The translations under genes and the position numbers were made by a program. The notes below the pieces were generated by a model. That model did not search any database and had not been told where the DNA came from. It was given only the letters and a program-made list of their open reading frames with translations. Positions 10,949 to 62,778 of a DNA stretch of 64,000 nt are shown here, piece after piece (positions within the stretch are counted from its first letter, which is position 1; the number at the start of each line of letters is the position of its first letter). The stretch is from an uncultured Candidatus Bathyarchaeia archaeon (lineage in GTDB: Archaea > Thermoproteota > Bathyarchaeia > 40CM-2-53-6 > DTDX01): NCBI GenBank assembly GCA_964608455.1, contig CAZSNM010000005.1:4069-68068 (forward strand), written 5' to 3'.

Positions 10949-12382
10949 TTGGAGGAAAAAATTCAAACATTCAGGTTAATCTCAAATAATTTTTTCACAA
11001 GAAGCTTGTTAAAAAGTATTTCAAACTATTGCGAAAAAGATGGAAAAAATAGACTGGAAATAGGCTTAGAGCTTTATTCAGGAGTTAGAAAAGAAGCATG
11101 TTTAAAATGCAGGGTTACCGAAAAATTTTTAAATTTAATTTTAAAAATCGGTAGAAAAACATTTAACGTTTCAGAGGAGGAAATGAAAAAAACTTTTGCT
11201 GATGCTTATTGGAGAAGAGGGTTAAGCAGTGTAGTTAAAGGATTAGGTCTTTTCGGTGTTACAAAACCATTTACTCCAGGAGCACCATTTCAAGTTGTTT
11301 GGGAAATAACTAAAGCTTGTAATTTAAGATGTAAACATTGCTCAGCTAATGCTGGAGTTGGACTAGATGAATTAAATACAGAAGAAGCTTTAAAAGCAAT
11401 AGATAAACTTGATAAATTTGGTATAACGATTTTAGCCTTCTCCGGTGGAGAACCATTAATTCGAAAAGATTTTCCTAAACTTGCTAAATATGCAGCTGAT
11501 AAAGGAATATACGTAGCTGTAGCTACAAATGGTACATTAATAACTAAGGAAAAAGCGAAAGAAATGAAGGAAGCTGGAATAGAGTATGTGCAAATCAGCC
11601 TTGATGGAGCAGTTCCAGAAACCCATGATCACTTTAGGGGAGTACAAGGTGCATTTAATAAAACTATTGAAGGAATTAAAAATGTTGTAGCTGAAGATTT
11701 CTTTGTTAACGTTTCAACCACTGTAACTAAATTAAATTATAGGGAAATTCCAAAAATACTAGATTTATGCGAAAAGCTTGGTGTAGATTGGTTTATGGCA
11801 TATAATTTTATTCCAACTGGAAGGGGCATCGATATAGCAGAGTTAGATTTGACGCCGGAAGAAAGAGAAAATCTTTTAAAAATGCTTTATGAAAGAATGC
11901 AAAATTCAAATATAGCTATGCTTTCTACAGCTCCTCAACTTGCTAGAGTTTCTTTAGAAGCTTCCTGCCAAAGCGAAGCATTAGTTTTAAGCCACTTTTA
12001 CTCAGCTAAATCAAGGGAAAAAATTAAGAGTTTAGCTGAATTTATAGGTGGATGCGGTGCAGGAAGATTTTATATAGCTATAAAGCCTAATGGTGATATT
12101 CAACCATGCGTTTTTCTACCATTAAAACTTGGAAACATTAAAAGCGATAATCTGGAAGAATTATGGGTAACATCTAAAGTTTTAAAAGATCTTAGAAATA
12201 AAGATGCTTTAAAAGGACATTGTGGAATATGCGAATATAGATATTATTGTGGTGGATGTAGGGCAAGAGCTTATGGATACTTTAAAGACTATTTAGCACC
12301 TGACCCAGGTTGCATAAATAATAACGAGTATTATGCTATGTTGAAAAAAGAAGTTGAGTTAACTCCTGTTATTCAACGTTAA
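10949..12382 (+). CDS. radical SAM/SPASM domain protein
   Basis: CNLRCKHC radical SAM motif and a C-terminal Cys-rich SPASM-like region (GGCGAGRFYIAIKPNGDIQPCVF ... CGICEYRYYCGGC), plus a ~110-aa N-terminal extension. Confidence 0.7.
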   Translation: MEEKIQTFRLISNNFFTRSLLKSISNYCEKDGKNRLEIGLELYSGVRKEACLKCRVTEKFLNLILKIGRKTFNVSEEEMKKTFADAYWRRGLSSVVKGLGLFGVTKPFTPGAPFQVVWEITKACNLRCKHCSANAGVGLDELNTEEALKAIDKLDKFGITILAFSGGEPLIRKDFPKLAKYAADKGIYVAVATNGTLITKEKAKEMKEAGIEYVQISLDGAVPETHDHFRGVQGAFNKTIEGIKNVVAEDFFVNVSTTVTKLNYREIPKILDLCEKLGVDWFMAYNFIPTGRGIDIAELDLTPEERENLLKMLYERMQNSNIAMLSTAPQLARVSLEASCQSEALVLSHFYSAKSREKIKSLAEFIGGCGAGRFYIAIKPNGDIQPCVFLPLKLGNIKSDNLEELWVTSKVLKDLRNKDALKGHCGICEYRYYCGGCRARAYGYFKDYLAPDPGCINNNEYYAMLKKEVELTPVIQR

Positions 12383-12410
12383 GTTTTTTATTTATTTTTA
12401 AAAGATTTTT

Positions 12411-13982
12411 GTGGAGGGAAAATTATTGGTTGAGATCATACTTACTGCTGATAGAACGTTAATGAGTAATTATCATGGAAAAGAATTTCTTGGTTTTGCT
12501 ACTAGTGCTCCACCAAACATTTTGCCAACCTGGCTTTATAAATTTATGTTTTTCCCTCCAATAAAAAATAAAAATGGTATACCGATTGAGGCTCCTTATG
12601 CGCTTAGAAAAATTGAAGCAAAGCTTCTAGATGAAGGGTTTAACGTGCTTACAGTTGATCCGGATCATTTAAAAAAGTATATTAAAAACGCTAAAGTTCT
12701 ATGTGTTCATGTTATGGATCCCTTTGGTTTAGGACCTTCATCAACAACCTTTGCTAGAATTCTTCGTACAGGTGAGCCTTATCTATCAAAATATTTTAAA
12801 GAATTGCTTACAAAGAATGAGGTTAAAGAAGCTAAGAAGCGAGGTTTAAAGATAATTGTGGGTGGTCCTGGAGTTTGGCAATTTAAATATAGAGTTGAAG
12901 AACAAAAAGCTTATGGAATAGATTGTATAGTTTATGGAGAAGCAGAACGTATTATTAGTAATCTTATAAGAAAAGCTTTAAATGGGGAAGAGTTACCAAG
13001 CTATTTTGAAGTTAACCTTTATGAATTACCAAGTTTAAACGAGATTTCAGAAATTAAAAACCCTTCAATTAATGGTTTAATTGAAGTTGGTCGTGGATGC
13101 CCTAGAGGATGCGATTTTTGCAGCGTAACCCTAAAGCCTTTAAGATGGTACCCGCTTGATAAAATAGAAAAGGAACTTCAAGTAAATGTTAAAGGTGGGT
13201 TAACTTCAGGCATTCTTCATGCTGAAGATGTGCTTCTTTATGGTTCTAAATCTGTTATTCCTGATAGAGAAAAAGTTCTTGAATTACATAAATTAACTAA
13301 AAAATATTTAAAGAATTTTTGTTGGAGCCATGTTAGCATAGCAGCTATAGCAGCTGATCCAAAATTGTTTAAAGAAGTTTCAGAAATAATTATTGATGAA
13401 AATCAAAAATGGTGGGGTGCTCAAATAGGTATAGAAACAGGTTCACCTAGATTAGTTAAATTAACTATGCCAGCTAAAGCTAAGCCTTTTAAACCTGAAG
13501 AGTGGCCTTCTGTTGTAAAGGAAGCGGCAGGTTTAATGAATGATTATGGATTGATACCTGCTTGCACATTGATTACAGGTTTACCTGAAGAAACTGATGA
13601 AGATGTAATTAAAACCATAGAATTAATTGAAGATTTGGATTGGTTTAAAAGTATGATCGTTCCGTTATTTTTTGTTCCCATGGGTAAATTAAAGAATAAA
13701 GATTGGTTTAAATATGAAGATTTAACAGAGTTACAAAAAGAATTGATGGTTAAATGTCTCAGTCATGATATTAAATATGCAAGGGAAATTATGGATTGGT
13801 ATATTAAGGAGAAATGGTATAGCCCTATATTAAGAAGGCTTTATGATTTGTTTATTTGGTTAATAGAGCGTAAAGGGAAAAAAAGCAAAATTTTTGAATA
13901 TCAAAAAGTTTCAGTTTTTCATAAGGAAAGGGAGGAAATTAAAGAGGTTGAAGCTGTTAAAAGAGGCTACTACTATTGCTGA
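12411..13982 (+). CDS. radical SAM enzyme with an N-terminal B12-binding-like domain
   Basis: GCPRGCDFC CxxxCxxC motif preceded by a ~200-aa Rossmann-like N-terminal domain; 523 aa. Confidence 0.65.
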   Translation: MEGKLLVEIILTADRTLMSNYHGKEFLGFATSAPPNILPTWLYKFMFFPPIKNKNGIPIEAPYALRKIEAKLLDEGFNVLTVDPDHLKKYIKNAKVLCVHVMDPFGLGPSSTTFARILRTGEPYLSKYFKELLTKNEVKEAKKRGLKIIVGGPGVWQFKYRVEEQKAYGIDCIVYGEAERIISNLIRKALNGEELPSYFEVNLYELPSLNEISEIKNPSINGLIEVGRGCPRGCDFCSVTLKPLRWYPLDKIEKELQVNVKGGLTSGILHAEDVLLYGSKSVIPDREKVLELHKLTKKYLKNFCWSHVSIAAIAADPKLFKEVSEIIIDENQKWWGAQIGIETGSPRLVKLTMPAKAKPFKPEEWPSVVKEAAGLMNDYGLIPACTLITGLPEETDEDVIKTIELIEDLDWFKSMIVPLFFVPMGKLKNKDWFKYEDLTELQKELMVKCLSHDIKYAREIMDWYIKEKWYSPILRRLYDLFIWLIERKGKKSKIFEYQKVSVFHKEREEIKEVEAVKRGYYYC

Positions 13983-15463: not shown

Positions 15464-15748
15464 TTAATCCTCTTCAGATTCTAAAAGAAGTTTCAAAGGA
15501 ATGTTCTGGCTTGTTCCATCTGGAAGCTGACGTCTAATGCTTATGGGTAAAATGCCTTCTTTCAATTCTAAAAGAGCTATTTCAATTGGAGATTTAACAC
15601 TTGGAGGTACATCTATTAATACAGGTGCTCCCATAGCTATTTGCATTGCTCGAGCCCCGACAATCCTAGTTTTTTCAAAGCGGGTAAGCTTTTTAGGACC
15701 GATCAGCGTAGTCTCTATAGAGTTAAGTTTCTCCGAGTTCTTCACCAC
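15464..15748 (-). CDS. rpoK: DNA-directed RNA polymerase subunit K (RpoK/Rpb6)
   Basis: [25 protein letters not shown] matches the RpoK/omega signature; 94 aa. Confidence 0.8.
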
Positions 15749-17402
15749 TCTCTTCTGGCCCCTTTGATGGCCCTTTTTCTTCTTTAGTTTTAGAAGCTGC
15801 TATTACATCATCTATTCTTAATATCATTGTTGCAGCTTCGCTTGCAGATTTAATAACTTGCATTTTAACAGCTAATGGTTCATAAACATCAAGTTTACTC
15901 ATATCAGCAACTTTACCCGAGAATACATCTACTCCAGCCCATTTTTCTCCTTTATCATGTTTAGCTCTTAACTCTGTAATTATATCTATTGGATCTAAAC
16001 CAGCATTTTCAGCTAAGGTCATTGGTATGCTCTCTAAAGCTTCAGCAAAAGCTAAAACAGCTAACTGTTCTTTTCCAGCTAGCTTCTCAGCATATTGCCT
16101 TAACCTTCTAGCGACTTCAGCTTCAGGTGCTCCACCGCCAGCTACTACTCTTGGGTCTCTAACAACATCTCTAACAACGCATAAGGCGTCATGAATGGCT
16201 CTTTCAGCTTCATTAACTATTCTTTCTGCACCTCCACGAACTAAAATAGTAACAGACTTAGGGTTTTTGCATCCTTCCACAAAAGTCATTTTATCATCTG
16301 CAACTTTTCTTTCTTCAACAAGTTTAGCAAAACCTAGATCATTTGGAGTTAAATCATCAAGGTTTGTTATTATCTTTCCTCCTGTAGCTTTAGCCAGTTT
16401 TTCCATATCAGATTCTTTAGCTCTTCTGACGGCTAAAATTCCTTTTTTAGCTAGGAAGTGTTGAGCCATATCATCGATTCCTTTTTGGCAAATAACAACG
16501 TCAGCTCCAGCTTTAGCAATTTTTTCAACCATTTCTTGAAGCATTCTTTCTTCTTCTTTAAGAAAAGCATCCATTTGCTCAGGTGTTTCTATGTTTATTT
16601 TAGCGTCCATTTCTGTTTTTTCTATTTCTAAAGGACAATTAAGCAAAGCTATTTTAGCGTTTTCTATTCTTTTAGGCATGCCTGGATGAACAACTTCCTT
16701 ATCAAGTACAACTCCTTTAACTAGCTTTGTATCCATTAGGGATTCTCCAGCTTTTTTTTCAACTTTCACATCGTCAATATCAACTTTATAACCTTCCAGA
16801 GTTTTTTCAGCCACCTGAAGAATAGCATCAACAGTTAAATCCGCTATATAATCTTTATATTCTGAAAGCAGTTTACTAGCTACAGCTACTTTAGCAACTT
16901 TCTTTAAAAATTCTTTATCACTTGGTTCCACTTTAATAGCTATTTCTTCAAGAGCTTTAAGAGCTTCTTCAGAAGCGGCTCTATAACCATCAACGATTAC
17001 AGTTGGATGAACATCTTTATCAATAAGCTCCTCAGCTTTAGTAAGGAGTTCTCCAGCTAATACTACGGCGGTTGTTGTTCCATCTCCTACTTCATCATCT
17101 TGTGTTTTAGCTACTTCAACCATCATTTTAGCTGCTGGATGTTGAACATCAATCTCATCAAGAATAGTAGCCCCATCATTAGTAATAGTAACATCACCAA
17201 AGCTGTCAACAAGCATTTTATCCATTCCCTTTGGTCCTAGGGAGCTTTTTACAGTTTCAGCGATAATTCTAGCAGCAGTAATATTTGCATGTTGAGCTTC
17301 TCTTCCTCTAGATCGGGTAGTACCTTCTTTTAATATCAAAATCGGAGTTCCAGCAAGTTCTGGAGTGGATTCGACTGCCATACCATAAAACCCCCTTTTC
17401 AA
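15723..17402 (-). CDS. ths: thermosome subunit (group II chaperonin)
   Basis: 559 aa with GPKGMDKML, the [12 protein letters not shown]-binding motif and a GDGTTT loop. Confidence 0.95.
16641..17228. repeat. 588-bp tract, identical apart from a single mismatch, to 61282-61869 in inverted orientation
   Basis: Direct nucleotide comparison of the reverse complement with the second thermosome gene: identical including synonymous sites, flanked by diverged sequence. Confidence 0.85.
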
Positions 17403-24447: not shown

Positions 24448-25851
24448 TTAAGCTTTAACCCATTTTTCCTGTAGAAATTTAGAGATTCCAGAGGAATCCA
24501 TAGGTCCAACAAGAACTTTCCATCCTGTAAGCTCTTCTATTTCTCCACTAAGTCTAGAAGCTCTTCCAGGAATAATTATAGTTTTATGCTTAACTTTATT
24601 TTCAATTCCACTTCCCTTAATGCTTTCAGCAACTTTTTCAGCTGTAAGCTTTCTTCCAGCAACAGCACTTTCAACAGAAAGCCCTTCAGTGTCGACCACA
24701 AGCAAATAACAATCGATTTTGCTAGCTTCAATATCTGAAGCGACTGTATAATATGTTAAAGCAAAATTTGTTGTTAAAAGAATTGGAGATTCTTCAGTTG
24801 GGTTTCCGAAAACTTTAATGCCAGTTTCTACAGCTACAGGTTTTCTAGGATCAGTATATAGATTTTGCCTAAGGATTGTTAATGGAAGTAAAACCCAACC
24901 ATCAAGGCTATGCATTATTAAAACATCAGCATATCTAGTTATTAGCATTGATGCAAGGCAAGCTTCTTTCCATGCTGTTACCTCTGGAAATTCACTAGGT
25001 TCTATCCAAACTATTGCTGGAACACCAATTAATGGAAAACCCAAAAGTTCATCTTCTTCTTTGCATGCAGCTCTTCTTAACATCGTGAAATTATTTAATG
25101 TATCTGCAAGTCCGTTCCAAAATGTTCCAGGATCTAAAACTAGATCTTCAACTCCATAGGCTAATAATGTTTTTGTTAAAGATTTTAAAGTTCTTAAATC
25201 ATTTGGTGAAAAAACAGTTAATGGACATTTATACATTAATGAAAGTTCAGCCATTTCTTTCCAATTCTCTTTTGTAGCACCATAAATCAATGGTTTTTTA
25301 CTGGAAACCTCTATTAATCCGGCCTCCATAACATTTGGATCTAAAGAACATAAAATTAATGGAAGATTTGTAATTGAAGAAACCTTTTTAACAGTTGCCT
25401 TAAATGTATCTGGATCATTTAAAACAGATCTAATAGCAATTAAATCAAGCTTCAAATTTTGTCCAATATATGTATATGAAAAACTTTCAGCTTCCTTCAC
25501 TCTTTTAACTATTTCTTCTTCAGGCATATCATCTGAAACATCTATGGCAATAGCTGTTGGATTATGATATGTTAATTCATGCCTATACATAACTAGTTTA
25601 CCACCAATTTTAACAATGTTGCTTCCAGAACCTATAGTAACTTCCTTTACTGGAGGCTTAAGCATTTCCCATAAAGCTTTATATTCGTTTTTATATTTTT
25701 CAGTTAAAATAGGTGGGCATTTATCTAATGTAACTTCTCTATTAACAAGTTTAGCAGCAAAAGCCATGCAGTTTTCTTCTCCACATTCCTTACAATTAGT
25801 TTTAGGCAAATATTTATAAACTTCTGTTGGGCTTAAAGTTTTTTTAGGCAT
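24448..25851 (-). CDS. cdhE: ACDS gamma subunit (corrinoid Fe-S protein large subunit, CdhE/AcsC)
   Basis: N-terminal 4Fe-4S motif CKECGEENCMAF...DKCP; 467 aa; last gene of the cdh operon. Confidence 0.8.
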   Translation of the reverse strand: MPKKTLSPTEVYKYLPKTNCKECGEENCMAFAAKLVNREVTLDKCPPILTEKYKNEYKALWEMLKPPVKEVTIGSGSNIVKIGGKLVMYRHELTYHNPTAIAIDVSDDMPEEEIVKRVKEAESFSYTYIGQNLKLDLIAIRSVLNDPDTFKATVKKVSSITNLPLILCSLDPNVMEAGLIEVSSKKPLIYGATKENWKEMAELSLMYKCPLTVFSPNDLRTLKSLTKTLLAYGVEDLVLDPGTFWNGLADTLNNFTMLRRAACKEEDELLGFPLIGVPAIVWIEPSEFPEVTAWKEACLASMLITRYADVLIMHSLDGWVLLPLTILRQNLYTDPRKPVAVETGIKVFGNPTEESPILLTTNFALTYYTVASDIEASKIDCYLLVVDTEGLSVESAVAGRKLTAEKVAESIKGSGIENKVKHKTIIIPGRASRLSGEIEELTGWKVLVGPMDSSGISKFLQEKWVKA

Positions 25852-25858
25852 TTTATTA

Positions 25859-27064
25859 TCACCTTTTTAAGCTTGTAATCCAATTATAAATTTTTTCAGT
25901 CTCTTCTTTAACAGTTAATTTTTTAATTACTTCCTTAACGGTTTTAACAGCAGCAGGATGCATCATCATAAAATAGTCTACCCCAGCCAAAAGCAAAGTT
26001 AAGGCTGAAACAGTTTCCCAAATTGGTCCCCTAAGCTCCTTGGGACCCCATTTTGACTCCATAGTCATCCAAGCTTCTCTAGCAGCCCAAGCATTTGTTG
26101 TTCCTGAAGAAATTGGATGTTGAAGTTCAGCATCACCCATTAATGCGGCTAATCTAGTTCTTTCCATAACTGTAAAAGCATAATCTAAACCATAACCTAA
26201 AGCAGCTGTTGTTGTATCAATTACAATCTTATTTTTAGGTAAAAATTCATATAATTTACGATTTAATTCCCTAGCATCATCCATATTCATAGCTGTAAAA
26301 GCTATAACACAATGATTGTGTTTTTTAATGGCTTCCGCAACTTTTTTGATATCCATGTTTAAAGTTACTGAATTAAATAAAATGTTTTCTCCTTCAGCAA
26401 CTTCAGCAACTTTCTCGAAAACTTTTAAATCTTTTTCCGGATCACCACAACCACCAACAGTTAAAGGAACATCAACTGCTTGAAGAACGTCCTCAACTGT
26501 TTTAGCTGCTTCTGAAGGTTTAGTATCCTTAAGAAGGGGATCTATGCTTACTAAATGAAGGTTTATTACTTCAGCACCCCACTTTTCCACAGCTTTTTTA
26601 GCCCATGCTACAGGATCCTCAAGAACATCTTCCACATGCATTTTTACAGCTTTAGCTAAAGGAATCTTCATATCAAAAACATCTATGGAGATTACTGGAG
26701 GGTTTGGCGGTGGCGATTCAAAAAGATAAAATGCTGGTGCTTTTTCACCTCCTATAGTTACTGTTTTACCTCTTGAGCCTCCCTCGCTTTTAGTTGCACC
26801 AATTTTAACCTCAACTATTTCTCCAGGATATTTCATTATTGGTGGATGAAACTCCTCCTCTAAAATCTCTTTTGGTTTAACTTTTGGAGGAGCCTCAATT
26901 TTAGGTAATGGAATCCGGCTTATAAAAGGTTGAAGTAAAAACTCTAATTCTTTAACTTTTATCTCAACATTTTCAAGCTCTATTTCTTGAAATTCACTTA
27001 AAAGCTTAATTATGTCAAATCCAAAATCACTAAAATCTTCTTTTTCCTTATTCTTTTTGCTCAT
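25859..27064 (-). CDS. cdhD: ACDS delta subunit (corrinoid Fe-S protein small subunit, CdhD/AcsD)
   Basis: 401 aa TIM-barrel-like ORF between cdhC and cdhE; stop/start overlap with cdhC. Confidence 0.7.
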   Translation of the reverse strand: MSKKNKEKEDFSDFGFDIIKLLSEFQEIELENVEIKVKELEFLLQPFISRIPLPKIEAPPKVKPKEILEEEFHPPIMKYPGEIVEVKIGATKSEGGSRGKTVTIGGEKAPAFYLFESPPPNPPVISIDVFDMKIPLAKAVKMHVEDVLEDPVAWAKKAVEKWGAEVINLHLVSIDPLLKDTKPSEAAKTVEDVLQAVDVPLTVGGCGDPEKDLKVFEKVAEVAEGENILFNSVTLNMDIKKVAEAIKKHNHCVIAFTAMNMDDARELNRKLYEFLPKNKIVIDTTTAALGYGLDYAFTVMERTRLAALMGDAELQHPISSGTTNAWAAREAWMTMESKWGPKELRGPIWETVSALTLLLAGVDYFMMMHPAAVKTVKEVIKKLTVKEETEKIYNWITSLKR

Positions 27065-28461
27065 TTAGTTTTTCCCTCCCTTCTAATTATAGCTTTTTTA
27101 GCCGTTATTGTTGCGTCTTTTAAAATAATTTTGAATCCTCCTCCAGTTGTTAAGGGAAGAGTTGAAGCTTCCATTACAATAGGTGGCGCTTCTTCAATTT
27201 TTGGTGCAGCAACCTCTTCTTTTTTCTCTTTTTCTTCGATCTCCTTCCATCTTTGAATCACAGGATGATTTTTACTTTTAAGAAAGTTTTTTAATTCTTC
27301 TATTGTTTTAACATCGTTTTCAGTAGCTATTTTATCCACTATATCTTTTGGAATAAAATCTTTAACTCTTTCTTTAATACTGGATGGCATCCATACAATT
27401 CTATTCCATCCACCATCAGCTTGAAGAAATTTTGAAGAACGCATATATTCTATTGAGATTCCATGAAAACCATCAACTTGTCTACCTCCAGCTGTTGAAT
27501 CGGCCATAGTTGAAAACGGCAAACCGTTTACAGCTACACCTTTAAAATCTCTATGAATTATTCCAAGCCCATCAACCTCAGGTATATAAAAGGCTATTGC
27601 TTCAAAGCATCCACAAGAAGTATGAGGATAGTTAAAAGCTGTGTAAAGCCATACTCTTTCAATTTCTCCAAGTGATTTTTTCTTAACAGCCTCATTTACA
27701 CCACTCCATTCTCCTTTAAACGAATCTAAAACTTTTCCAACTTCTATTTTAAATATTGGACCTTTAGGATCTACTCTTGCAGCTGCTCTTCCATCAAACC
27801 AGCTTATGGCTCCGCAATTAGCATATCTTTGTGGGGTTATTACACATACATGGGTTGGAGCAAAAGATTGACAAAGTGTACAACCATAAAAACAATCCAC
27901 TTCTTCATCTTTTAATCCTCTAGCTCTAGCATCTCTTTTTTCATAAATTTCTCTAGCTATTTTTTCCATTTCTTTAACTTTTTCTTGATCAGTAATAAAT
28001 GTTATTTGAATTTTTTCTATTATTGGAAGCTCGCTTTTAAAAAGTCTTTGAAGGACTTTCCCTATTAAAATAAAGGAGTTTAAACCTTTTTTAAATGATT
28101 TTTTGCTTAACCTTAACCAGATATCATATCTTTGATTTAAATGCATAAAGCCTTCAATATAATTACAATATTCATGTATTCTTCTTTCTATAACGCCTTC
28201 AAGATCTTCTTCAATTTCTTTTCCAGCTACTTCAACAAGAATTCCTAGAGGATAACTTTTTCCTTCTTCTAAATCCTTAATATCTGGGCCTATAATTTGA
28301 ATTTTTCCATCTTCTATTTCATCCATTTTTCTAGCTTTTACAAGTTCAAATTTATTTTCTACTTTTGGTCCTCCAAACTCAACATGCATATCTGGCTTTC
28401 TAATTCTTTCACCTTCATAAATAACTCCAACATCAACTGGAATATCACTAAACATTGACAT
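27061..28461 (-). CDS. cdhC: ACDS beta subunit (acetyl-CoA synthase, CdhC)
   Basis: A-cluster motifs CFYGCTLCQSFAPTHVCVITP and HTSCGCFEAIAFYIPE; 466 aa. Confidence 0.9.
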   Translation of the reverse strand: MSMFSDIPVDVGVIYEGERIRKPDMHVEFGGPKVENKFELVKARKMDEIEDGKIQIIGPDIKDLEEGKSYPLGILVEVAGKEIEEDLEGVIERRIHEYCNYIEGFMHLNQRYDIWLRLSKKSFKKGLNSFILIGKVLQRLFKSELPIIEKIQITFITDQEKVKEMEKIAREIYEKRDARARGLKDEEVDCFYGCTLCQSFAPTHVCVITPQRYANCGAISWFDGRAAARVDPKGPIFKIEVGKVLDSFKGEWSGVNEAVKKKSLGEIERVWLYTAFNYPHTSCGCFEAIAFYIPEVDGLGIIHRDFKGVAVNGLPFSTMADSTAGGRQVDGFHGISIEYMRSSKFLQADGGWNRIVWMPSSIKERVKDFIPKDIVDKIATENDVKTIEELKNFLKSKNHPVIQRWKEIEEKEKKEEVAAPKIEEAPPIVMEASTLPLTTGGGFKIILKDATITAKKAIIRREGKTK

Positions 28462-28465: not shown

Positions 28466-28996
28466 TTAACCTCCTTCTAAAGCCTTAATTAAAATATTTA
28501 AGCTTTTAATCCAATCGTTTATGGTTAAATTTGGAAAAGACCATGAAGCATGAGGTTGATAAAATCTATCAAGAGAAATCGTTATAATGTTTGAAAAATG
28601 TTTTATTCCGGAAAGTACAAGCCACTCTACATAATATGGAATAGCTATAAATAATGCTAGATCATGTGAACCTAAACCATCAACTCCACTCCAGTTTGGA
28701 TCTATAAGTTTGCTTCCAACTTCCACTATAGACATAAGGGAAACTGGAATAAACTTTTTAATTTCAGCGAAAGATTTTCCAGATGCCACCACAGGTATTT
28801 TTCCTGCTTTAGCAATTTTAACAATATATTCTATGAGTTTAATTTCATTGTTTGTTTCTTCAACAGCTTCATGACCAACTATAAGCACAGGATGTTTAGC
28901 TCTTTTTATTAATGTAGCTGCAACCTCAGGTTTTTGAATTATAAAACTTTTTGTTGGACCTGGAATTTCAGCTTTTTGCCATGGTTCAGCAGCCAT
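28466..28996 (-). CDS. cdhB: ACDS epsilon subunit (CdhB)
   Basis: 176 aa ORF immediately downstream of cdhA, in the conserved operon position. Confidence 0.7.
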   Translation of the reverse strand: MAAEPWQKAEIPGPTKSFIIQKPEVAATLIKRAKHPVLIVGHEAVEETNNEIKLIEYIVKIAKAGKIPVVASGKSFAEIKKFIPVSLMSIVEVGSKLIDPNWSGVDGLGSHDLALFIAIPYYVEWLVLSGIKHFSNIITISLDRFYQPHASWSFPNLTINDWIKSLNILIKALEGG

Positions 28997-28998: not shown

Positions 28999-31344
28999 TT
29001 ATTCCCTTCTTTTTCTAATTAATCTCGGTAAAAGTGTTGGATCAGGAATAATATTTTCTTTCCATCCCTTCTCCTTTAAAAATTCTAAAACTTCATCTTT
29101 CATAGTTATCGGTATGTCGGCAACTGTTCTAACGAATAGATGAAGATCATTAGGTAATGTTCCATATATTTTTTTATGCAAATCTATATAATGGGTAAGC
29201 TTTATTGCTCGCCCCTTTGTTGTATCATTTGGTCTCATGCAAAGCTTTGGAATCATAACTATCGCTTCTTCTTTACTTTCAGCTGAATAAAACAAATGTT
29301 CTGGAACTGGTCCAACATAAACTTTTTCTCCAGTTCTAGCATCATAAACATACCAATCTTCTTGATTTTCTTTTTTTCCTAAAAGCATTCTTCTATATTT
29401 AAATCCATGAGGGCCGACTATAACTGGTATTCCCAGCCTCCAAAATCCGCTGGCTATTGAAGCAGCTTTTTGAGACATTGCTCCCCAACCTACTCCAACA
29501 GCTCCAACTCTATTTAAAATATAATCAGCTATTTCCTCATAGTTTCCACGAAGTCTTCGTTTAGCAAATATGCTTGCTATTTTTATAGCTGCTCCAGCTA
29601 TATGAGAATTTGAAACACATGAACCAACATTGCTTACACCTCCAGCATCGAAAACTCCAGGATACATTTCATAAATTGTTTTTCCTTCACCATTTTTGTG
29701 CATAGCCATAGACATTGCTGCGCAGCCTGAAGCAACAATTATATAGTTTCTTTTAGCAAATTCCTCAGCCATTTCAGCAACCTCTTTACCGCTTTTAGGG
29801 TAGTTAGCGCATCCAACAAATGCTATAACGCCTGGAATTTCACCTAAAACTATTGGGCTTCCAACCTGACGAATTTCAACATCTTGAATAGCTCCTCTTC
29901 CAACTCTAATTTTAAATTTTTCCTCTTTAAGATTTTTCTCTGCAGCAACCTCCATAAAAGAATGAATGGGAAGGTCAATTGGGCAAGCGCTTTCGCATCT
30001 ACCGCAACCTATGCATAAATCCAGTAAATCAGCTAAATTTTTTAAATTTCCTTTTGAAGCTTCTGTTAATGCTTCAGGAATGGGCAAATTGTTTGGGCAA
30101 GCTCTGGAACATTCAAAACATTTTCTGCATTTTTTAGCTCCTTCAATAACACCTTGAATATCTGGAATGGCTTTAAATTTAGCTCTTTTAGGTGCAACTA
30201 ACAAAGCTGTTTTAACAGCAATTTCCCCCACTTTTTCTGGATCAAGTATTAAAGCACCCGGTATCACACCATTAACTAATTCATTAATTACATTGGTAGG
30301 CTGCTCAAAGGTTTTATCAATTAGACCTAAACAATTTTTCTCGCTTGTAGCAATTAATGGAGCTTTAATTTTTTGAGCTTCACTTAAGGCATCAGCCCTA
30401 ATGCATTGTTCATCCACAACAATTACATCTGGAATTCCAGATCTAATAAATCTTAACTGCCAAGATATTGGTCCGACAATTTTAGCTTTAGGATCATATC
30501 TTGAGAGGTCATGCGCTGTACAGCATATTCCACAAACTTCAACTTCATTTTTAAGTCCATTATCCTCTAAATAATCAACGATGCTTATAGCTGATGGAAC
30601 ATTATGACCTATAACAAGAATTACTGGTTTAGAGTTATCAACAACTCCAAAACCTATTTCAGTTAATGGGGCGTCAGGATCAGCTTTAGGAAAGCCATAA
30701 GCAGAAATCTGAGCTATATCAGCTACCTCCATAGCTGTATGATCAAGCATTCCTGCATGGAAAACCTTTGATTCAAAATCTATGAAACTCCCTTCTTGTC
30801 CAGTATGAGTGGCTGAAAGCAACTTTACTATTTCCCTTTCTACATAATTTAAAACTTCTTCCAAATCTCCTAATGTTTTAGGTCTTATTCCACAAACCAA
30901 TCTAATAATTGGAGCTTCAACTTCAACGCTTACACCTCCAACGTCTATTGGCCATTTTCTACCATATTTCTCTATTAAGTGCTCTACTAAATGTCTAGCA
31001 TGAGCTGTATGCGTAGCAGCACCAATACAGCATGCTAATAAAACTATTCTTGATTGTTGAGCAGGCATTGTTAAACCGCAAGCACCTTTTTTATCCTTTG
31101 TTAAATCGCATTTACCCATTGTGCATAAGCAGCAAACATCGCAAAAAGGCATATAAAAAGGTTTGTATCTTTCAAGAAGCTTTAAATCCCAATTTCTTAA
31201 ATCTGAAATAGATGGGAAAGGTGTAGGACCAGTTTCTTCCTCCCAAGCTTCCTCAAGAATTTTCCCAATAGAAATTTCAAAATCTTTTATTTCACCTAAA
31301 CTTGTTTTTAATTCCCCTATTTTTAGCTTTAAGGTTTTACTCAT
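28999..31344 (-). CDS. cdhA: ACDS alpha subunit (CO dehydrogenase catalytic subunit, CdhA)
   Basis: 781 aa with multiple Cys clusters (CDVCCLC, CRKCFECSRACP, CIGCGRCESACP ferredoxin-like inserts) and CODH C-cluster-region Cys/His. Confidence 0.9.
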   Translation of the reverse strand: MSKTLKLKIGELKTSLGEIKDFEISIGKILEEAWEEETGPTPFPSISDLRNWDLKLLERYKPFYMPFCDVCCLCTMGKCDLTKDKKGACGLTMPAQQSRIVLLACCIGAATHTAHARHLVEHLIEKYGRKWPIDVGGVSVEVEAPIIRLVCGIRPKTLGDLEEVLNYVEREIVKLLSATHTGQEGSFIDFESKVFHAGMLDHTAMEVADIAQISAYGFPKADPDAPLTEIGFGVVDNSKPVILVIGHNVPSAISIVDYLEDNGLKNEVEVCGICCTAHDLSRYDPKAKIVGPISWQLRFIRSGIPDVIVVDEQCIRADALSEAQKIKAPLIATSEKNCLGLIDKTFEQPTNVINELVNGVIPGALILDPEKVGEIAVKTALLVAPKRAKFKAIPDIQGVIEGAKKCRKCFECSRACPNNLPIPEALTEASKGNLKNLADLLDLCIGCGRCESACPIDLPIHSFMEVAAEKNLKEEKFKIRVGRGAIQDVEIRQVGSPIVLGEIPGVIAFVGCANYPKSGKEVAEMAEEFAKRNYIIVASGCAAMSMAMHKNGEGKTIYEMYPGVFDAGGVSNVGSCVSNSHIAGAAIKIASIFAKRRLRGNYEEIADYILNRVGAVGVGWGAMSQKAASIASGFWRLGIPVIVGPHGFKYRRMLLGKKENQEDWYVYDARTGEKVYVGPVPEHLFYSAESKEEAIVMIPKLCMRPNDTTKGRAIKLTHYIDLHKKIYGTLPNDLHLFVRTVADIPITMKDEVLEFLKEKGWKENIIPDPTLLPRLIRKRRE

Positions 31345-31449
31345 TTTAAATCACTTTTTTTACTTAAATTTAAAAAAAGACAAAAATAAACCTCTTAATT
31401 TAATTCTTTGAGTTAATAGAGTTATTCTTAATGGTATTTTAAAGATGTT

Positions 31450-33363
31450 TTAGCTTTTTAAACTTTTTTCTAAAACTGGATGATTAACTTTTTTTAGGAA
31501 AATTTTTAATTCCTCAATGTTTTTAGCTTCTTCCTCAGTAGCTATTTTACCATAAAGTTCACTTGGAATAGCATCTTTCACTTTTTCTTTCAGAGCTTTA
31601 GGCATCCATACAATTCTATTCCATCCACCATCAGCTTTCAAAAATTTGCGAGATTTAATATATTCTATTCCTATGCCCAAAAAACCTTCAACTTGTTTTC
31701 CTCCACCACAGAATCCAGCCATAGCTGGAAAATTCATTCCATTAACAGTTGGTTCTCTAAAACTTCTGTCTACAATTCCTATTCCATCAATTTCAGGAAT
31801 ATAAAAGGCTATTGCTTGAAAACATCCGCAAGAAGTATGAGGATGACCAAATATACTATGAAGATAAACTTTAGCTATAGAATTATGAGATTTAACTTTA
31901 ACAGCCTCATTTACACCACTCCATTCCCCTTTAACAGGATCTATACATTCCCCTTTATTTATTGGAAAGTTTGGTCCTGATGGATCTACACGATAAGATA
32001 TGCTTGCATCAAGCCAGCTTGTAGCACCGCATAAAGATATTCTTTCAGGAGTTATTACACATACATGGGTTGGAGCAAAAGATTGACAAAGTGTACAACC
32101 ATAAAAACAATCCACATTTTCCTCGGTTAACTCTTTTATTTTTAAATCTCTCTCCTTATATATTTTTTTGGCTTCATTAATTTTTTCTTCAACAATAGCT
32201 GGGTTAGTTAAAATTGTTACTTGAACTTTTTCTACTAAACGAGGAAAAGTTGAATGGAACATAAAGTATAGGATTTCCCCTAAATGTTTAATCTTTAAAT
32301 TTTTTTGAGTAGCCTCCTTGCTTATTCTAATCCATATTTCATCCCTAGAACCTAAATGCATTATTCCTTTAGCTTGATTTAAAAATTTATGAATACGTCT
32401 TTCAAAAACAGGTTCTAAAGTTTTCTCAAGTTTTGAACCTGCTAATTCAACTATTATTCCAAGCGGATAACTTTCCCCTTCCTTCATTTCATTAATTTCT
32501 AAACCCTCGACTTTTATTAAACCATCATTAACTTCATTCATAGATTTAATTTTAACAAGTTCAAAAGCTAAAGTTTTTCCTCCTCCAAATTCTACAAACA
32601 TTTCAGGTTTTCTTATTTTTTCACCTTCATAAATTGCCCCATACTCTATTGGTAAGGGGGGTTTAACAAATTTTTTTAACTTAATTTTTTTAGCATCGCA
32701 TCCAGCTTCAATAATTTTTTCATAGCTTGCTTGATAAATAAATAATGGGAAATCTTTTAGTTCAGGTTGATCAACAATTACAGGTATTCCTAAGCTTGAG
32801 AGCCCCACACCTATAGCCAAACCTTTATTATCAAGTTTTCCAAGCATTATAGCGAAGGTTGGAACCCTATTCTTAATATAACTTTTAATAGCTTCTTTAT
32901 CTCCAGGTTTAACTCCCCCAAACATTAATGGTGCTCTAATAATCAAATTTGCAGCATGAACAATTGATGAAAATTCTAATCCTAAAGGAATAATTTTTTC
33001 CTCTAAACCAAATTTAATGCCTATTTTCTCTATTTGATTTAAAACTAAACCTGAAACTAAACATAAAAGGTTTGTTTCTTGAATATCTTTGAGTAATTCT
33101 TCAGCAAGCGATTCTGCTTTAGCTAAACCATAAATTAAAATTACTCCTGGAATTGTTCCATTAGCTAACTCTAAACTAACTTCTCTAAAAGTTGCATCAG
33201 AAATAAAGCGTTTCAATTCTTTATTAAAAGCGTAATTAATAGCTTCAATAATTTCAAGCCCCATGAGTGAAGCTAAACCAATATTTAAAAGTTTTTCTTC
33301 ATTTTTACCTTCTTTGCTAATTAAAGATTTACATAAAATTATTGCTCCATTTAAATCTTTCAA
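31450..33363 (-). CDS. acetyl-CoA synthase (CdhC/AcsB) paralog with an N-terminal extension
   Basis: The C-terminal 400 aa are roughly 70-80% identical to CdhC (CFYGCTLCQSFAPTHVCVITP, HTSCGCFQAIAFYIPE). It carries an extra ~220-aa N-terminal domain; 637 aa in total. Confidence 0.8.
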   Translation of the reverse strand: MKDLNGAIILCKSLISKEGKNEEKLLNIGLASLMGLEIIEAINYAFNKELKRFISDATFREVSLELANGTIPGVILIYGLAKAESLAEELLKDIQETNLLCLVSGLVLNQIEKIGIKFGLEEKIIPLGLEFSSIVHAANLIIRAPLMFGGVKPGDKEAIKSYIKNRVPTFAIMLGKLDNKGLAIGVGLSSLGIPVIVDQPELKDFPLFIYQASYEKIIEAGCDAKKIKLKKFVKPPLPIEYGAIYEGEKIRKPEMFVEFGGGKTLAFELVKIKSMNEVNDGLIKVEGLEINEMKEGESYPLGIIVELAGSKLEKTLEPVFERRIHKFLNQAKGIMHLGSRDEIWIRISKEATQKNLKIKHLGEILYFMFHSTFPRLVEKVQVTILTNPAIVEEKINEAKKIYKERDLKIKELTEENVDCFYGCTLCQSFAPTHVCVITPERISLCGATSWLDASISYRVDPSGPNFPINKGECIDPVKGEWSGVNEAVKVKSHNSIAKVYLHSIFGHPHTSCGCFQAIAFYIPEIDGIGIVDRSFREPTVNGMNFPAMAGFCGGGKQVEGFLGIGIEYIKSRKFLKADGGWNRIVWMPKALKEKVKDAIPSELYGKIATEEEAKNIEELKIFLKKVNHPVLEKSLKS

Positions 33364-33645
33364 AGTTTCAATTTTTTTCCCGAGTAATCCATAAATTAAT
33401 GGTAAAGAGTATATGGTTTCTGGAAAAGTTATTGGAGTGTCTTCCCTTAGTTTTTCTAAGGCTTTTTTTAAATATTCCTCAGATAACTCTATAATTTCTT
33501 TAGCTCCAGAAAAAGCTAAGGAAAAGTTATTTAAACTCAGAATTTTTAGCCCCCTTTTTTCAAAACATTTTTATATAATACTTTGTTATATTTAATTTGA
33601 ATAGCAACATTTTTAAATTTTTCTATCTTTATAAGGTGTAGAAAA

Positions 33646-33837: not shown

Positions 33838-34614
33838 TTGAAAATAGCTGTTTCTGGTAAGGGTGGTGTTGGAAAAACCTTTATAACAAGTGTTTTAGCA
33901 AGATATTTTCTTAAAAAAGGTTTTAAAGTTTTAGCTATAGATGCTGATCCATCTCCTAATCTAGGTGTAAATTTAGGTTTAACTTTTAATGAAGTGAAAA
34001 ATATAACACCTATATCGGAAAATTTTGATTTGATAAAAAGCAAAACCGACTCTGGAGTCCCAGGTGTATACAAGTTAACTTTTGAAGTTGAAGATGTAAT
34101 TAAAAATTACTCAATAGTTACTCCAAGTGGAGTAAACCTGATTATTATGGGAATTGTTAAATCAGCTGAATCGGGATGCACTTGCCCAGCAAATGCCTTT
34201 ATTAAATCATTGCTTAAACATTTGCTTAGCAAAAAAGATGAAATAGTAATTATGGATATGGAAGCGGGAACAGAACATCTTGGAAGGGGAACAGCCAAAT
34301 ATGTGGATTTAATGCTTATAGTTTCTGATTCAAGTTTAAAATCATTAGAGATAGCATTTAAAATTTATGAATTAGCAGTTAACATGGGTTTAAAACGAAT
34401 ATTTCTTGTTGGAAATAAGATCTTAAATAAAAGGGATGAAGAAACCATATTAAGCTTTTCCTTTAAAAATGGATTAAACGTTATTGGGTTTATTCCATAT
34501 GATTATAAAATAGTTGAAGCTGATTTACATGGAGAATATTCATATGTATTTCAATCAAAAAGCATTTATGCTATAGAGGATATTGGAGAAAAAATATTAA
34601 ATATGAAAAATTAA
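33838..34614 (+). CDS. cooC: CODH nickel-insertion accessory ATPase CooC
   Basis: MinD/ParA-type deviant Walker A KIAVSGKGGVGKTF; the CxC motif (SGCTCP) is typical of CooC; 258 aa. Confidence 0.85.
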   Translation: MKIAVSGKGGVGKTFITSVLARYFLKKGFKVLAIDADPSPNLGVNLGLTFNEVKNITPISENFDLIKSKTDSGVPGVYKLTFEVEDVIKNYSIVTPSGVNLIIMGIVKSAESGCTCPANAFIKSLLKHLLSKKDEIVIMDMEAGTEHLGRGTAKYVDLMLIVSDSSLKSLEIAFKIYELAVNMGLKRIFLVGNKILNKRDEETILSFSFKNGLNVIGFIPYDYKIVEADLHGEYSYVFQSKSIYAIEDIGEKILNMKN

Positions 34615-44388: not shown

Positions 44389-46341
44389 TTAAATATAGGT
44401 TGTTTCAATTATTTTTCTTAATTCTTCAACAGATTCAGGATTCATTAATGTGGTGATGTCTCCTACAGGCTCTTTTGTAATCAACTTCTTTATTATTCGC
44501 CTCATTATTTTTCCGCTTCGAGTCTTAGGCAGATCTGAAACATAAATAATTTTTTTAGGTCTAGCTGTTGGACCTATAATATGCTCTACTTGCTTTATCA
44601 ATTGATTAGTTAACTCTTCTGAAGGTGTATATCCCTTCTCTAAAACAACAAAGGCTATAGGTACTTCACCTTTAATTGGATCTGGAGCAGCCACTACAGC
44701 GCTTTCTATAACAGCTTCATGCCTATTTAAAGCATCCTCTACCTCTGCATTAGCTAATCTATGTCCAGCCACTTTCATAACATCATCTACTCTACCAGTT
44801 ATTCTAGTGTTTCCCATTTCATCTATGATTTTAGCTCCATCACCAGTTGTATAGTAGTTTTCTCCAAATCTACTCCAATATTGTTCCTTATATCTTTTAG
44901 GATCCTTAAATATTCCTCTAAGCATTCCAGGTGGAAATGGATTGCATATAACTAGGTTTCCTTCTTTGCTAGGTTTACCTTCATCATCAAGAATTTCTCT
45001 TTTAACACCTGGGAAAGGTCTTCCAGCAACCGTAGGTATAAATGGGCCTATACCCGGTAAAGCATTTATTAATGTTCCTCCAGTTTCAGTTTGCCACCAA
45101 GTATCAATTATTGGGCATCTTCCACCACCAATATTATTGAAATACCACATCCAAGCGTCTCTATCAATTGGCTCACCAACAGTACCTAATATTCTTAAAC
45201 TTGATAAATCATGTTTTTTAACCCATTCTTCACCAAACATCATAAACATTCTAATTGCTGTTGGAGCTGTATAAAATATTGTTACACCATATTTTTCTAT
45301 TATTTGCCAGAATCTATCTGGTGCTGGATAATCTGGAGCTCCCTCATAAGTCACCATTGTTGCTCCACATAGCAATGGACCATAGCAAGCATATGTATGC
45401 CCTGTTATCCATCCAATATCAGCTGTACACCATAGAATGTCTTCATCATGCAAATCAAAATCCCATTTAGTTGTCCAATAAGCTTGAGTAGCATATCCTC
45501 CCGTATGGTGAACTACACCCTTAGGTTTACCTGTTGTTCCACTAGTATATAGAATAAATGATGGATCCTCACTGTCCATAACTTCAGGTTCACAGTATGA
45601 ATCTGCTTTTTCCATTAATTCATGCCACCAAAAGTCTCTTCCAGCTTTCATTTCAACATTTAATCCAGCTCTTTTAACAACAATAACTTTCTCTACAGCT
45701 GTTTCTTTGATTCCTTCATCAGCATTAGCTTTAAGGTTTATAATTTTTCCTCTGCGGTAGTATCCATCAGCTGTAATTAAAACTTTTGCTTCAGCATCTA
45801 TTAATCTGCTTTTTAAAGATTCTGGACTAAAAGCAGAGAAAACTACACTGTGAACAGCTCCTATTCGAGTACAAGCTAACATAGCTATTTGAACTTCAGG
45901 AACTATAGGCATATAAATTCCAACTCTATCACCTTTTTTCACACCAAGATTCTTAAGTACATTAGCAAATTTGTTAACTTCCCTGTAAAGATCATTATAT
46001 GTTAAAACTCTGTTTCTTTCCTCAGGCGGTTCAGGTTCCCAAATTATAGCAGCTTTATTTTTTCTCCAAGTTTTAACATGTCTATCTACAGCATTATAAC
46101 AAATATTTAGTTTACCGCCAATAAACCATTTAAAGTATGGTGGATTCCATTCATAGATTTTATCCCATTCTTTAAACCATTCTAAACCTTCACGAGCTCT
46201 TTCAGCCCAAAAAGCTAATGGATCTTTATTGGCTTTTTCATAAATTGATTCATCAGATAGCCAAGCTATTTTTTTAAGTTCAGGTGATGGCCAAAATATT
46301 TCTCCTTCTCCCTTAACAACCCAGTTTTTTCCTTTTTGCAA
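44389..46341 (-). CDS. acs: acetyl-CoA synthetase (AMP-forming)
   Basis: 650 aa; [14 protein letters not shown]-binding motif and a C-terminal lysine region (SGKIMRR). Confidence 0.9.
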
Positions 46342-61134: not shown

Positions 61135-62778
61135 ATGATGAAGATGGCTTATCTTGCTGGTCAACCGATTTTAATACTTAAGGAAGGGACTAGCAGAAGG
61201 AAAGGTAGAGATGCTCAAAAAGCAAATATTACTGCTGCTAGAATTATCGCTGAAACTGTAAAAACAACGCTTGGCCCTAGAGGAATGGATAAAATGCTTG
61301 TTGACAGCCTTGGTGATGTTACTATTACTAATGATGGGGCTACTATTCTTGATGAGATTGATGTTCAACATCCAGCAGCTAAAATGATGGTTGAAGTAGC
61401 TAAAACACAAGATGATGAAGTAGGAGATGGAACAACAACCGCCGTAGTATTAGCTGGAGAACTCCTTACTAAAGCTGAGGAGCTTATTGATAAAGATGTT
61501 CATCCAACTGTAATCGTTGATGGTTATAGAGCCGCTTCTGAAGAAGCTCTTAAAGCTCTTGAAGAAATAGCTATTAAAGTGGAACCAAGTGATAAAGAAT
61601 TTTTAAAGAAAGTTGCTAAAGTAGCTGTAGCTAGTAAACTGCTTTCAGAATATAAAGATTATATAGCGGATTTAACTGTTGATGCTATTCTTCAGGTGGC
61701 TGAAAAAACTCTGGAAGGTTATAAAGTTGATATTGACGATGTGAAAGTTGAAAAAAAAGCTGGAGAATCCCTAATGGATACAAAGCTAGTTAAAGGAGTT
61801 GTACTTGATAAGGAAGTTGTTCATCCAGGCATGCCTAAAAGAATAGAAAACGCTAAAATAGCTTTGCTTGATGCACCATTAGAAATAGAGAAAACAGAAA
61901 TAAGCGCCGAAATAAGAATTAGAGATCCAGCTCAAATGAAGGCTTTCCTAGATGAAGAAACAAGAATGATGAAGGAAATGGTTGAGAAAATCGCCAAAAC
62001 AGGAGCTAATGTTGCTCTTTGCCAAAAAGGAATCGATGATATGGCTCAGCATTTCCTAGCTAAAAAAGGAATAATGGCTGTTAGAAGAATAAAGAAGTCA
62101 GATATGGAGAAATTAGCTAGAGCAACAGGTGGAAAAATCGTTACAAACCTAGATGACCTTAAACCATCAGATTTGGGAGAATGCAAACTAGCTGAAGAAA
62201 GAAAGATTGGAGATGATAAAATGGTTTTCATCGAGGGATGCAAAGATCCTAAATCTGTAGCAATATTAATTAGAGCGGGATTAGAAAGACTTGTGGATGA
62301 AGCTGAAAGATCATTAACTGATGCCTTATCAGTAATAGCAGATGTTTATGAGAAAAATAGAATTGTTGCTGGAGGAGGAGCTGTTGAGGCTGAATTAGCT
62401 AAAAGACTAAAAGAATATGCTGCTAAGGTTGGTGGTAGAAAACAATTAGCTATAGAAGCATTTGCTAAATCATTGGAAATTATTCCAAAGGCTTTAGCTG
62501 AAAATTCAGGTTTAGACCCTGTAGACATAATGGTTTCGCTTAGAGCAGCTCATGAATCCCCTGATGGAAAATGGATGGGAGTTGATGTTTACACAGGTAA
62601 AATAGAGGATATGATGAAGAAAGGCGTAATAGAACCTGTTAAAGTTAAAGAGCAAGCTATTAAATCTGCTGTTGAAGCAGCCGCTATGATTCTTAGAATC
62701 GATGATGTTATAGCTGCAGCTAAACCACCGCCAACTCCATCCAAGAAAGGTGAAAAAGGAGCATCTGAAGAAGAATAG
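61135..62778 (+). CDS. ths: thermosome subunit (second paralog)
   Basis: 547 aa group II chaperonin; C-terminal Gly/Pro-rich tail. Confidence 0.95.
61282..61869. repeat. 588-bp inverted copy of the 16641-17228 tract (thermosome gene-conversion segment)
   Basis: Identical nucleotides apart from one mismatch, compared by eye. Confidence 0.85.

Follow-up and report, generated by a model that had tools for sequence, protein, structure and literature searches.

Bacterial acetyl-CoA synthase (ACS), AcsB (NCBIfam NF040764 / PRK09529), the ACS component of the bifunctional CODH/ACS known from Moorella thermoacetica, Carboxydothermus hydrogenoformans and Clostridium autoethanogenum, is a three-domain (A1-A2-A3) protein. 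Its A1 domain binds carbon monoxide dehydrogenase (CODH), extends the CO tunnel and forms an alcove over the proximal nickel; in the Moorella enzyme the alcove is lined by R142, G145, I146, V149, F229 and F512 (PMC11474084, PMC11321310). The canonical archaeal ACS, CdhC (TIGR00316; PDB 9c0s_E, from Methanosarcina thermophila), is a two-domain protein of ~460-470 residues, lacking A1 and ending in a C-terminal tail of ~60-75 residues. In ACDS, the archaeal complex of acetyl-CoA decarbonylase/synthase, Rossmann fold 2 of CdhA, the CODH alpha subunit, fills the role of A1 for the A1-less CdhC, and the disordered tails of CdhA, CdhC and CdhD have been proposed as tethers of the supercomplex. A 2024 structural paper has A1 missing from all archaeal ACS (PMC11474084). 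This statement is corrected in the main text of a July 2026 preprint (bioRxiv 10.64898/2026.07.07.736967), which reports AcsB from Bathyarchaeota and from several further groups of archaea. It also describes a 'prismane-CdhC' clade, found in gene clusters that combine two ACS genes with a CODH of the archaeal kind, as well as hybrid CdhC/AcsB systems in Methanococcales. The subject of the present analysis is a gene in a 64,000-nucleotide stretch of contig CAZSNM010000005.1 from an uncultured Candidatus Bathyarchaeia archaeon (the whole of this 64-kb stretch is referred to as the window). It is proposed, with a probability of roughly 0.7, to encode a functional three-domain AcsB-type ACS (the long ACS, in what follows), a second isoform beside a canonical two-domain CdhC.

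An earlier reading of the same DNA (the original prediction) had described an extra gene of 637 codons ahead of cdhABCDE, its C-terminal ~400 residues matching CdhC and its N-terminal 220 residues forming an extension. The first part of this description stands. A TTG-started open reading frame (ORF) of 637 aa lies at 31450..33363 on the minus strand and ends 105 bp upstream of cdhA; its C-terminal ~400 residues (the A2-A3 core) are 55% identical to the CdhC of the window, and both cysteine motifs of the A-cluster are present. The start and the length of the extension had to be revised: initiation is placed upstream of 33363, and the N-terminal domain comprises 293 residues. As read from its sequence, the true gene is 31450..33540 (-), encodes 696 residues and initiates at CTG or at the adjacent ATT. 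(The A2 match at residues 237-389 of the 637-residue ORF, for example, falls at residues 296-448 of the corrected protein, to which residue numbers in the long ACS refer unless the extended translation is specified.)

Resemblance to AcsB extends over the entire protein. Residues 17-701 of the extended translation align with residues 22-723 of the 731-residue C. hydrogenoformans chain 8cjb_B (E 3e-172). The score against the NCBIfam equivalog profile NF040764 (CODH_ACS_al_bet) is 818.2 bits, a narrow margin over the cut-off of 800, and the match covers profile positions 1-701 of 705; NF007078 is also passed (855.7 bits; cut-off 809). The A2-A3 core alone passes TIGR00316 (589 bits; cut-off 356). 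An alignment of the N-terminus to AcsB, which the original prediction had suggested, accordingly begins at residue 22 of the 8cjb_B chain and at position 1 of NF040764. The AlphaFold2 model of the long ACS (mean predicted local distance difference test score, pLDDT, 89.4) superposes on 8cja_B, which is in the closed conformation, with TMq 0.93 and a root-mean-square deviation of 2.4 Å over 711 columns, and on the Moorella ACS structures 1mjg, 1oao and 2z8y with TMq 0.91-0.93. The M. thermophila CdhC chain 9c0s_E, on the other hand, superposes on the A2-A3 half only. Like bacterial AcsB, the long ACS has no disordered C-terminal tail: it stops ~5 residues past A3, so that its C-terminal extension amounts to 0 residues as against 62 in the CdhC of the window, 60-69 in CdhC elsewhere and 53-87 in the long forms of Methanococcales.

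These comparisons bear on one alternative, in which the long ACS owes its existence to faulty annotation, being either a canonical CdhC whose start was mis-called or the product of a frameshift that joined it to an unrelated upstream ORF. Both had been named in the original prediction as grounds for abandoning it. The N-terminal part is homologous to the A1 domain of AcsB over its whole length, the real start lies further upstream and not at an internal Met giving a canonical CdhC, and the long form is conserved in many independent assemblies. No points in support of an artefact were found, and the idea is refuted by these findings.

A1 is homologous, by sequence comparison, not only to the CODH-docking and CO-tunnel domain of bacterial AcsB but also to Rossmann fold 2 of CdhA. 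Residues 486-643 of the CdhA of the window are 27% identical to A1 (E 1e-6), and CdhA residues 467-643 match the AcsB profile (E 2.5e-17). This homology agrees with the published structural homology of the two folds (PMC11474084).

The A-cluster is represented in full. Residues C482, C485, F488, C494 and C504 of the long ACS correspond to C506, C509, F512, C518 and C528 of the Moorella enzyme, and the A-cluster ligands are those of bacterial AcsB. The columns of C482, C485, C494, C504, C571, G572 and C573 are invariant in a 40-sequence alignment, and F488 is conserved in at least 90% of the sequences. The predicted ligands of the cubane are C482, C485, C494 and C504, and those of the two nickel atoms are C485, C571, G572 and C573. 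Three of the alcove residues are kept, R119, F207 and F488 standing in the places of Moorella R142, F229 and F512. At the level of sequence, then, the gene is demonstrably intact and under purifying selection, with a complete A1 and all A-cluster ligands.

The assignment of the start requires some explanation. The open frame runs 69 codons further 5' of TTG 33363, to the nearest in-frame stop at 33573-33571, and this open stretch contains no ATG, GTG or TTG codon. It does contain a CTG (33540-33538), which occupies the position of the TTG start codon in two relatives, a JGI contig (L005) and the NCBI metagenome-assembled genome (MAG) GCA_038843845.1 (L006); the same codon is also CTG in three contigs that are 96% identical (L001-L003). 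Across the 59 codons between this CTG and TTG 33363 the ratio of non-synonymous to synonymous substitution rates (dN/dS, omega) is 0.13-0.21 in comparisons with L001, L005 and L006, like the rest of the gene. These 59 codons (33364..33540) align with residues ~22-80 of 8cjb_B, and the 59 residues that they specify are modelled at pLDDT 78-96, with confident helices at residues 2-30 and 47-53. The corrected gene thus rests on the open frame, the AcsB homology, the TTG of the relatives, the low dN/dS and the predicted helices taken together. The stretch lying 5' of the CTG is held to be non-coding because two 1-bp indels separate the window from its 96%-identical relatives there; in-frame stops are also found in that stretch of the window. 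A Shine-Dalgarno-like GGGGG upstream of the CTG is a putative ribosome-binding site: its counterpart in L001-L003 is GGAGG, and L005 and L006 have comparable purine-rich motifs 8-11 nt 5' of their TTG.

A longer version of the protein, P0001 (720 aa, 24 additional codons, starting at GTG in the JGI annotation), was considered and rejected. The two 1-bp indels and the in-frame stops of the window fall in its additional segment; neither L005 nor L006 has anything corresponding to that segment, which lies just 35 bp from the start of cooT. Two proteins labelled 'partial' by NCBI, P0004 and P0005, were examined for a further non-canonical start; P0004 is simply truncated at a contig edge. What this means operationally is that gene callers mis-set this gene because its start is CTG, preceded by ATT: callers confined to ATG, GTG and TTG either clip the long ACS by 59 codons or, as with P0001, run 24 codons into the promoter.

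The replacement of an ancestral TTG by CTG, in the window and in L001-L003, might also be taken as a sign of a gene in decay, yielding no protein or only a truncated form from TTG 33363. The omega value of the long ACS gene is indeed above those of the neighbouring cdh genes (0.19-0.20 as against 0.04-0.08 for cdhA, cdhC and cdhD at the same dS, in comparisons with L001 and L006). However, neither the window nor any of three independent assemblies has a break in the 696-codon frame, the overall omega of 0.2 stays at 0.21 in the first 59 codons even inside the CTG-bearing lineage, all catalytic residues are intact, and the Shine-Dalgarno-like motif is retained 9 nt upstream. A product initiated at 33363 would, according to the model, be deprived of helices of the folded A1. 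A silent or decaying gene is therefore improbable. The sequence comparisons point instead to a gene under clear constraint, though this is 2.5-4.5 times weaker than on the core complex. The faster evolution, together with the weak CTG/ATT start, suggests that the isoform is an accessory one, called upon under certain conditions, and not the housekeeping ACS.

Relatives of the long ACS are encoded on JGI contigs and in NCBI 'Candidatus Bathyarchaeia' MAGs at 96%, 83%, 81%, 72% and 56% identity; further metagenome proteins are 48-54% identical, the long forms of Methanococcales 46%, and named bacterial AcsB proteins 40-43%. Among the MAGs that carry relatives are JAGTQY and JAGTRC, two of the Bathyarchaeia from hot springs in the set of Qi et al. 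2021 (PMC8407382). In the NCBI pipeline the name given to the homologues from MAGs is 'acetyl-CoA decarbonylase/synthase complex subunit alpha/beta'. The gene order long ACS-cdhA-cdhB-cdhC-cdhD-cdhE is kept in all lineages examined, at identities from 96% to as low as 52-56%, and in most cases cooT and cooC are divergent. Synteny retained across so deep a divergence is taken to rule out that the gene is a fusion or an artefact, or that it came recently from bacteria. (A scan of contigs with back-translated A1 peptides, whose patterns were Lys-rich and of low complexity, yielded a single distant Altiarchaeales locus at 27% identity.)

One relative, P0005 (MBS7655050.1), contains an exact 17-residue tandem duplication in the A2 domain (RSSFPRLIEKTQVIILT twice), which may be genuine and in frame or may have arisen in assembly. 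Metagenomes appear commonly to encode ACS in fused architectures. The ACS core stands at the C-terminus of several longer cluster representatives (P0260, 1375 aa; P0279, 1141; P0273, 1024; P0274, 991; P0271, 854), whose N-terminal extensions are 440-965 aa. In P0067, P0266 and P0276 (~1200 aa), ~480-500 residues follow the core, and in P0067 these include a CdhD (PF03599) domain.

The placement of the core has been approached in two ways. With the A2-A3 core as query, an exhaustive comparison against the representatives of clusters formed at 50% identity ranks a Bathyarchaeia long-form representative first (66%), followed by a short CdhC representative (58%); representatives of AcsB length come lower, mostly at 41-50% identity. 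In a neighbour-joining tree of 96 cores (100 bootstraps), the Bathyarchaeia long forms constitute a clade with bootstrap 93. This clade joins the CdhC super-clade against bacterial AcsB with bootstrap 71 and lies outside that super-clade with bootstrap 56. The long forms of Methanococcales, which have retained the tail, nest within the CdhC super-clade as a monophyletic group of their own (bootstrap 100). The core is on average 54% identical to classical CdhC, as against 49% to bacterial AcsB. These trees suggest a position for the long ACS core between bacterial AcsB and archaeal CdhC, a position that is provisional because the trees are distance trees with modest support. A neighbour-joining tree of A1 alone was unresolved and gave no support for monophyly of the Bathyarchaeia and Methanococcales A1 domains. 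The original prediction had proposed a bacterial-like or intermediate ACS coexisting with the canonical CdhC, and had called for a phylogeny; A1 (in sequence and in predicted fold), the missing archaeal tail and the place of the core in the tree (bootstrap 56-71) all bear it out.

A recent horizontal acquisition of a bacterial acsB would account for the domain architecture and for the NCBIfam equivalog, both of which are those of bacterial AcsB, and one close homologue is in fact filed under '[Eubacterium] cellulosolvens'. This homologue (WP_455364919.1) is encoded on a 10.2-kb contig (GCA_975971125.1, CDLUMS010000160.1; L013) on which MTHFR and the long ACS are found together with an archaeal cdhA-E cluster in its entirety; the contig is probably a Bathyarchaeia-like archaeal contaminant, mis-binned in a bacterial assembly. 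Every relative with more than 49% identity is either archaeal or a metagenomic sequence of no assigned origin, and named bacterial AcsB proteins stand at 40-43%; the core joins the CdhC super-clade and not bacterial AcsB; and G+C content across the long ACS gene matches that of the flanking DNA, in a gene order conserved across deep divergence. Recent transfer is accordingly very improbable.

How, then, does this locus compare with the systems already described? The long ACS shares the full-length architecture of bacterial AcsB but is only 40-43% identical to it overall, is closer in its core to archaeal CdhC, and is encoded beside archaeal CdhA/CdhB and a canonical CdhC, not beside AcsA. From canonical CdhC, with which it shares the A2-A3 core, it differs in length (696 residues), in its 293-residue A1, in the absence of the tail, and in evolving faster. 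The original prediction that the N-terminal domain is absent from archaeal CdhC is correct for canonical CdhC but does not extend to archaeal ACS at large: Methanococcales and several other archaea carry A1-containing forms. Among these, the 'prismane-CdhC' proteins of Methanococcales (Methanocaldococcus infernus, M. sp. 10A; 727-737 aa) are 46% identical to the long ACS. They keep the CdhC extension and their core lies inside the CdhC super-clade, neither of which is the case for the long ACS; moreover, the M. infernus long form is not beside cdhA. The neighbourhood in the window nevertheless corresponds to that described for prismane-CdhC in the main text of the preprint, in that two ACS genes, of which only one includes A1, accompany an archaeal-type CODH.

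The AcsB of Bathyarchaeota reported in the preprint is likewise three-domain and without C-terminal extension, and the long ACS very probably belongs to the same clade, as far as the main text of that preprint allows comparison. The central idea, that AcsB-type ACS exists in archaea, is already published there (10.64898/2026.07.07.736967). Its main text gives no gene neighbourhood for the Bathyarchaeota AcsB; here the gene lies upstream of cdhABCDE, with cooT and cooC divergent. What the present locus adds to that main text is the placement of the long ACS directly upstream of an entire cdhABCDE with its own canonical CdhC, in a deeply conserved order, together with its faster evolution, an alcove signature (S/L/A, considered below) and, in one sub-lineage, a non-canonical start codon.

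The preferred reading, that of a functional AcsB-type isoform beside CdhC, leads to the following picture of its action. The long ACS would assemble a Ni-Ni-[4Fe-4S] A-cluster and would make acetyl-CoA from CO, CoA and a methyl group that the corrinoid protein CdhDE supplies, or run the reaction in reverse. It would bring its own alcove and tunnel segment in A1; CdhC, in contrast, would borrow its alcove from Rossmann fold 2 of CdhA. Most likely it would dock through A1 on CdhA2B2, the only CODH encoded nearby: no second CODH/Prismane or corrinoid-protein paralogue is found in the 64-kb window, and the adjoining CODH is an archaeal CdhA with CdhB. Long ACS and CdhAB together would make up a CODH/ACS module of bacterial style, more stable and with a CO channel of greater length.

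The long ACS may be expressed independently of cdhABCDE, as a separate transcription unit. This is suggested by the T-runs and the TATA-like stretch that can be discerned by eye in the spacer before cdhA, the latter lying ~25-30 nt before the cdhA ATG; the spacer may contain a putative terminator and a separate cdhA promoter. The T-runs recur in L001, L005 and L006, and are absent from the G+C-richer L008. (A scan of the DNA for sigma-70 promoters and intrinsic terminators did no better than on shuffled sequence, these models not being applicable to archaea.)

Several observations weigh against this picture. With regard to the gene, it begins at a non-canonical codon (CTG or ATT), its putative promoter and ribosome-binding site were assigned by eye in DNA of 30% G+C, and expression and protein product are predictions. 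With regard to the alcove, three of its six positions depart from the bacterial consensus: S122, L123 and A126 stand where Moorella has G145, I146 and V149 and bacteria generally have G/(I,V)/V. This S/L/A signature is common to the Bathyarchaeia clade, and the lining is still largely hydrophobic. With regard to partners, docking of A1 on archaeal CdhA is predicted by analogy with the bacterial enzyme, and in solved and modelled ACDS structures it is Rossmann fold 2 of CdhA that takes the place of A1. A CooS/AcsA-type CODH may be encoded elsewhere in the genome, outside the window. Two distant members of the clade, P0026 and P0020, adjoin a short CdhD/CdhE-like corrinoid protein instead of cdhA, and L008 (19073-21446) and L009 (17589-19929) carry an additional corrinoid-protein pair. 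The preferred partners of the long ACS may therefore differ between lineages, and there are hints of a dedicated AcsB-plus-corrinoid-protein module in the lineages of P0026 and P0020.

Some of these observations would be accommodated if the long ACS were a stand-alone, monofunctional enzyme, its A1 a self-contained CO alcove that works detached from any CODH. Such an enzyme would use free (for example, geothermal) CO, or would run acetyl-CoA/CO exchange or cleavage, like the monomeric C. hydrogenoformans ACS. Monomeric three-domain structures, 7nyp_A (closed conformation) and 1ru3, are among the best fold matches; the long ACS has no C-terminal tail for tethering to the ACDS scaffold; its relatives come from hot springs; and no CODH gene adjoins the long form in P0026, P0020 or M. 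infernus. On the other hand, adjacency to cdhA is kept from 96% to 52% identity in the clade, and A1 is the CODH-binding and tunnel domain in every characterised system. A CODH-independent function is thus unlikely, and an isoform working alongside the archaeal CODH is the reading retained.

Table 1. Positions of the long ACS gene, its parts, and other features. Coordinates are those of the window except in the last two lines, which refer to the contigs named.
Feature	Position	Strand	Evidence and remarks
Corrected AcsB-type ACS gene	31450..33540	-	696 codons + stop; start CTG 33540-33538, alternative ATT 33543-33541
N-terminal codons missed by the ATG/GTG/TTG ORF call	33364..33540	-	59 codons, first A1 helices
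A1 domain, residues 1-293	32662..33540	-	Helical bundle + Rossmann fold; sequence, profile and fold matches
A2 (central) domain, Pfam PF03598 CdhC	32197..32655	-	E 2.2e-59
A3 domain, Pfam PF19436 ACS_CODH_B_C	31468..32160	-	E 5.2e-89; bears the A-cluster
A-cluster [4Fe-4S] + bridging Cys motif, C482-x2-C485-QSF488-x5-C494-x9-C504	32029..32097	-	Read from sequence
Ni-Ni site ligands C571-G572-C573 (Moorella C595-G596-C597)	31822..31830	-	Read from sequence
GGGGG, Shine-Dalgarno-like motif	33550..33554	-	9 nt 5' of CTG
Intergenic spacer long ACS/cdhA	31345..31449	-	105 bp; two T-runs (TTTATTTTTGTCTTTTTTT; 31370-31390), then A/T-rich TATA-like stretch
cdhA, archaeal-type CODH alpha subunit with Fe-S insert	28999..31344	-	TIGR00314, 1216 bits (cut-off 781); Pfam
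cdhB, epsilon subunit	28466..28996	-	PF02552, E 2.5e-30
cdhC, canonical two-domain, 466 aa, 62-aa C-terminal extension	27061..28461	-	TIGR00316, 692 bits
cdhD	25859..27064	-	Pfam/NCBIfam
cdhE, with cdhD the corrinoid Fe-S protein	24448..25851	-	Pfam/NCBIfam
cooT, CooT-like nickel chaperone, 59 aa	33646..33825	+	PF10133 on the identical gene in L001-L003
cooC/acsF-like P-loop ATPase	33838..34614	+	CbiA/ParA family matches
AMP-forming acetate-CoA ligase	44389-46341	-	TIGR02188, 904 bits; 11 kb from the cdh cluster
HMG-CoA synthase/thiolase-like protein, 509 aa	38053-39582	+	Extra C-terminal part
Thermosome, first paralogue	15723-17402	-	
Thermosome, second paralogue	61135-62778	+	
Two adjacent radical-SAM proteins	10949-13982	+	477 + 523 aa, the first with SPASM; beside a glycosyltransferase
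Short CdhD/CdhE-like corrinoid Fe-S protein pair near long ACS	L011, 11128-13340		
Short CdhD/CdhE-like corrinoid Fe-S protein pair near long ACS	L012, 12520-14069		

Genes in the surroundings of the long ACS are listed in Table 1. The CdhC of the window is 73-98% identical to many Bathyarchaeia CdhC proteins; an exact look-up of its sequence gave no entry. The cooT-cooC pair, divergent from the long ACS, is kept in L001-L003 and L005-L007, and could serve the maturation of either ACS or of the CODH. The neighbours are housekeeping genes of the usual archaeal kind (thermosome, TiaS, Lon, AMP-forming acetate-CoA ligase), and with its two thermosome paralogues the gene content of the window is ordinary for a Bathyarchaeia-like archaeon.

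ACS is among the oldest of carbon-fixing enzymes, and whether A1 is an ancestral part of it or a bacterial addition is a debated question. The locus described here is a clean natural case, in which both forms of ACS occur beside just one archaeal CODH and one corrinoid protein. Because the two forms are encoded side by side, it is a good candidate for testing what A1 contributes, be it to CO affinity, to the direction of the reaction or to the stability of the complex. It is possible, if doubtful, that the long ACS forms an uncharacterised hybrid enzyme, an AcsB-type ACS docked through A1 on CdhA2B2, and that its clade is a survivor of an ancestral three-domain ACS. If that were so, the organism would possess a stable, long-tunnel, bacterial-style CODH/ACS alongside the dynamic, CdhC-based ACDS, the two being switchable by way of separate promoters, and CdhC would have arisen from an ancestral three-domain ACS by losing A1.

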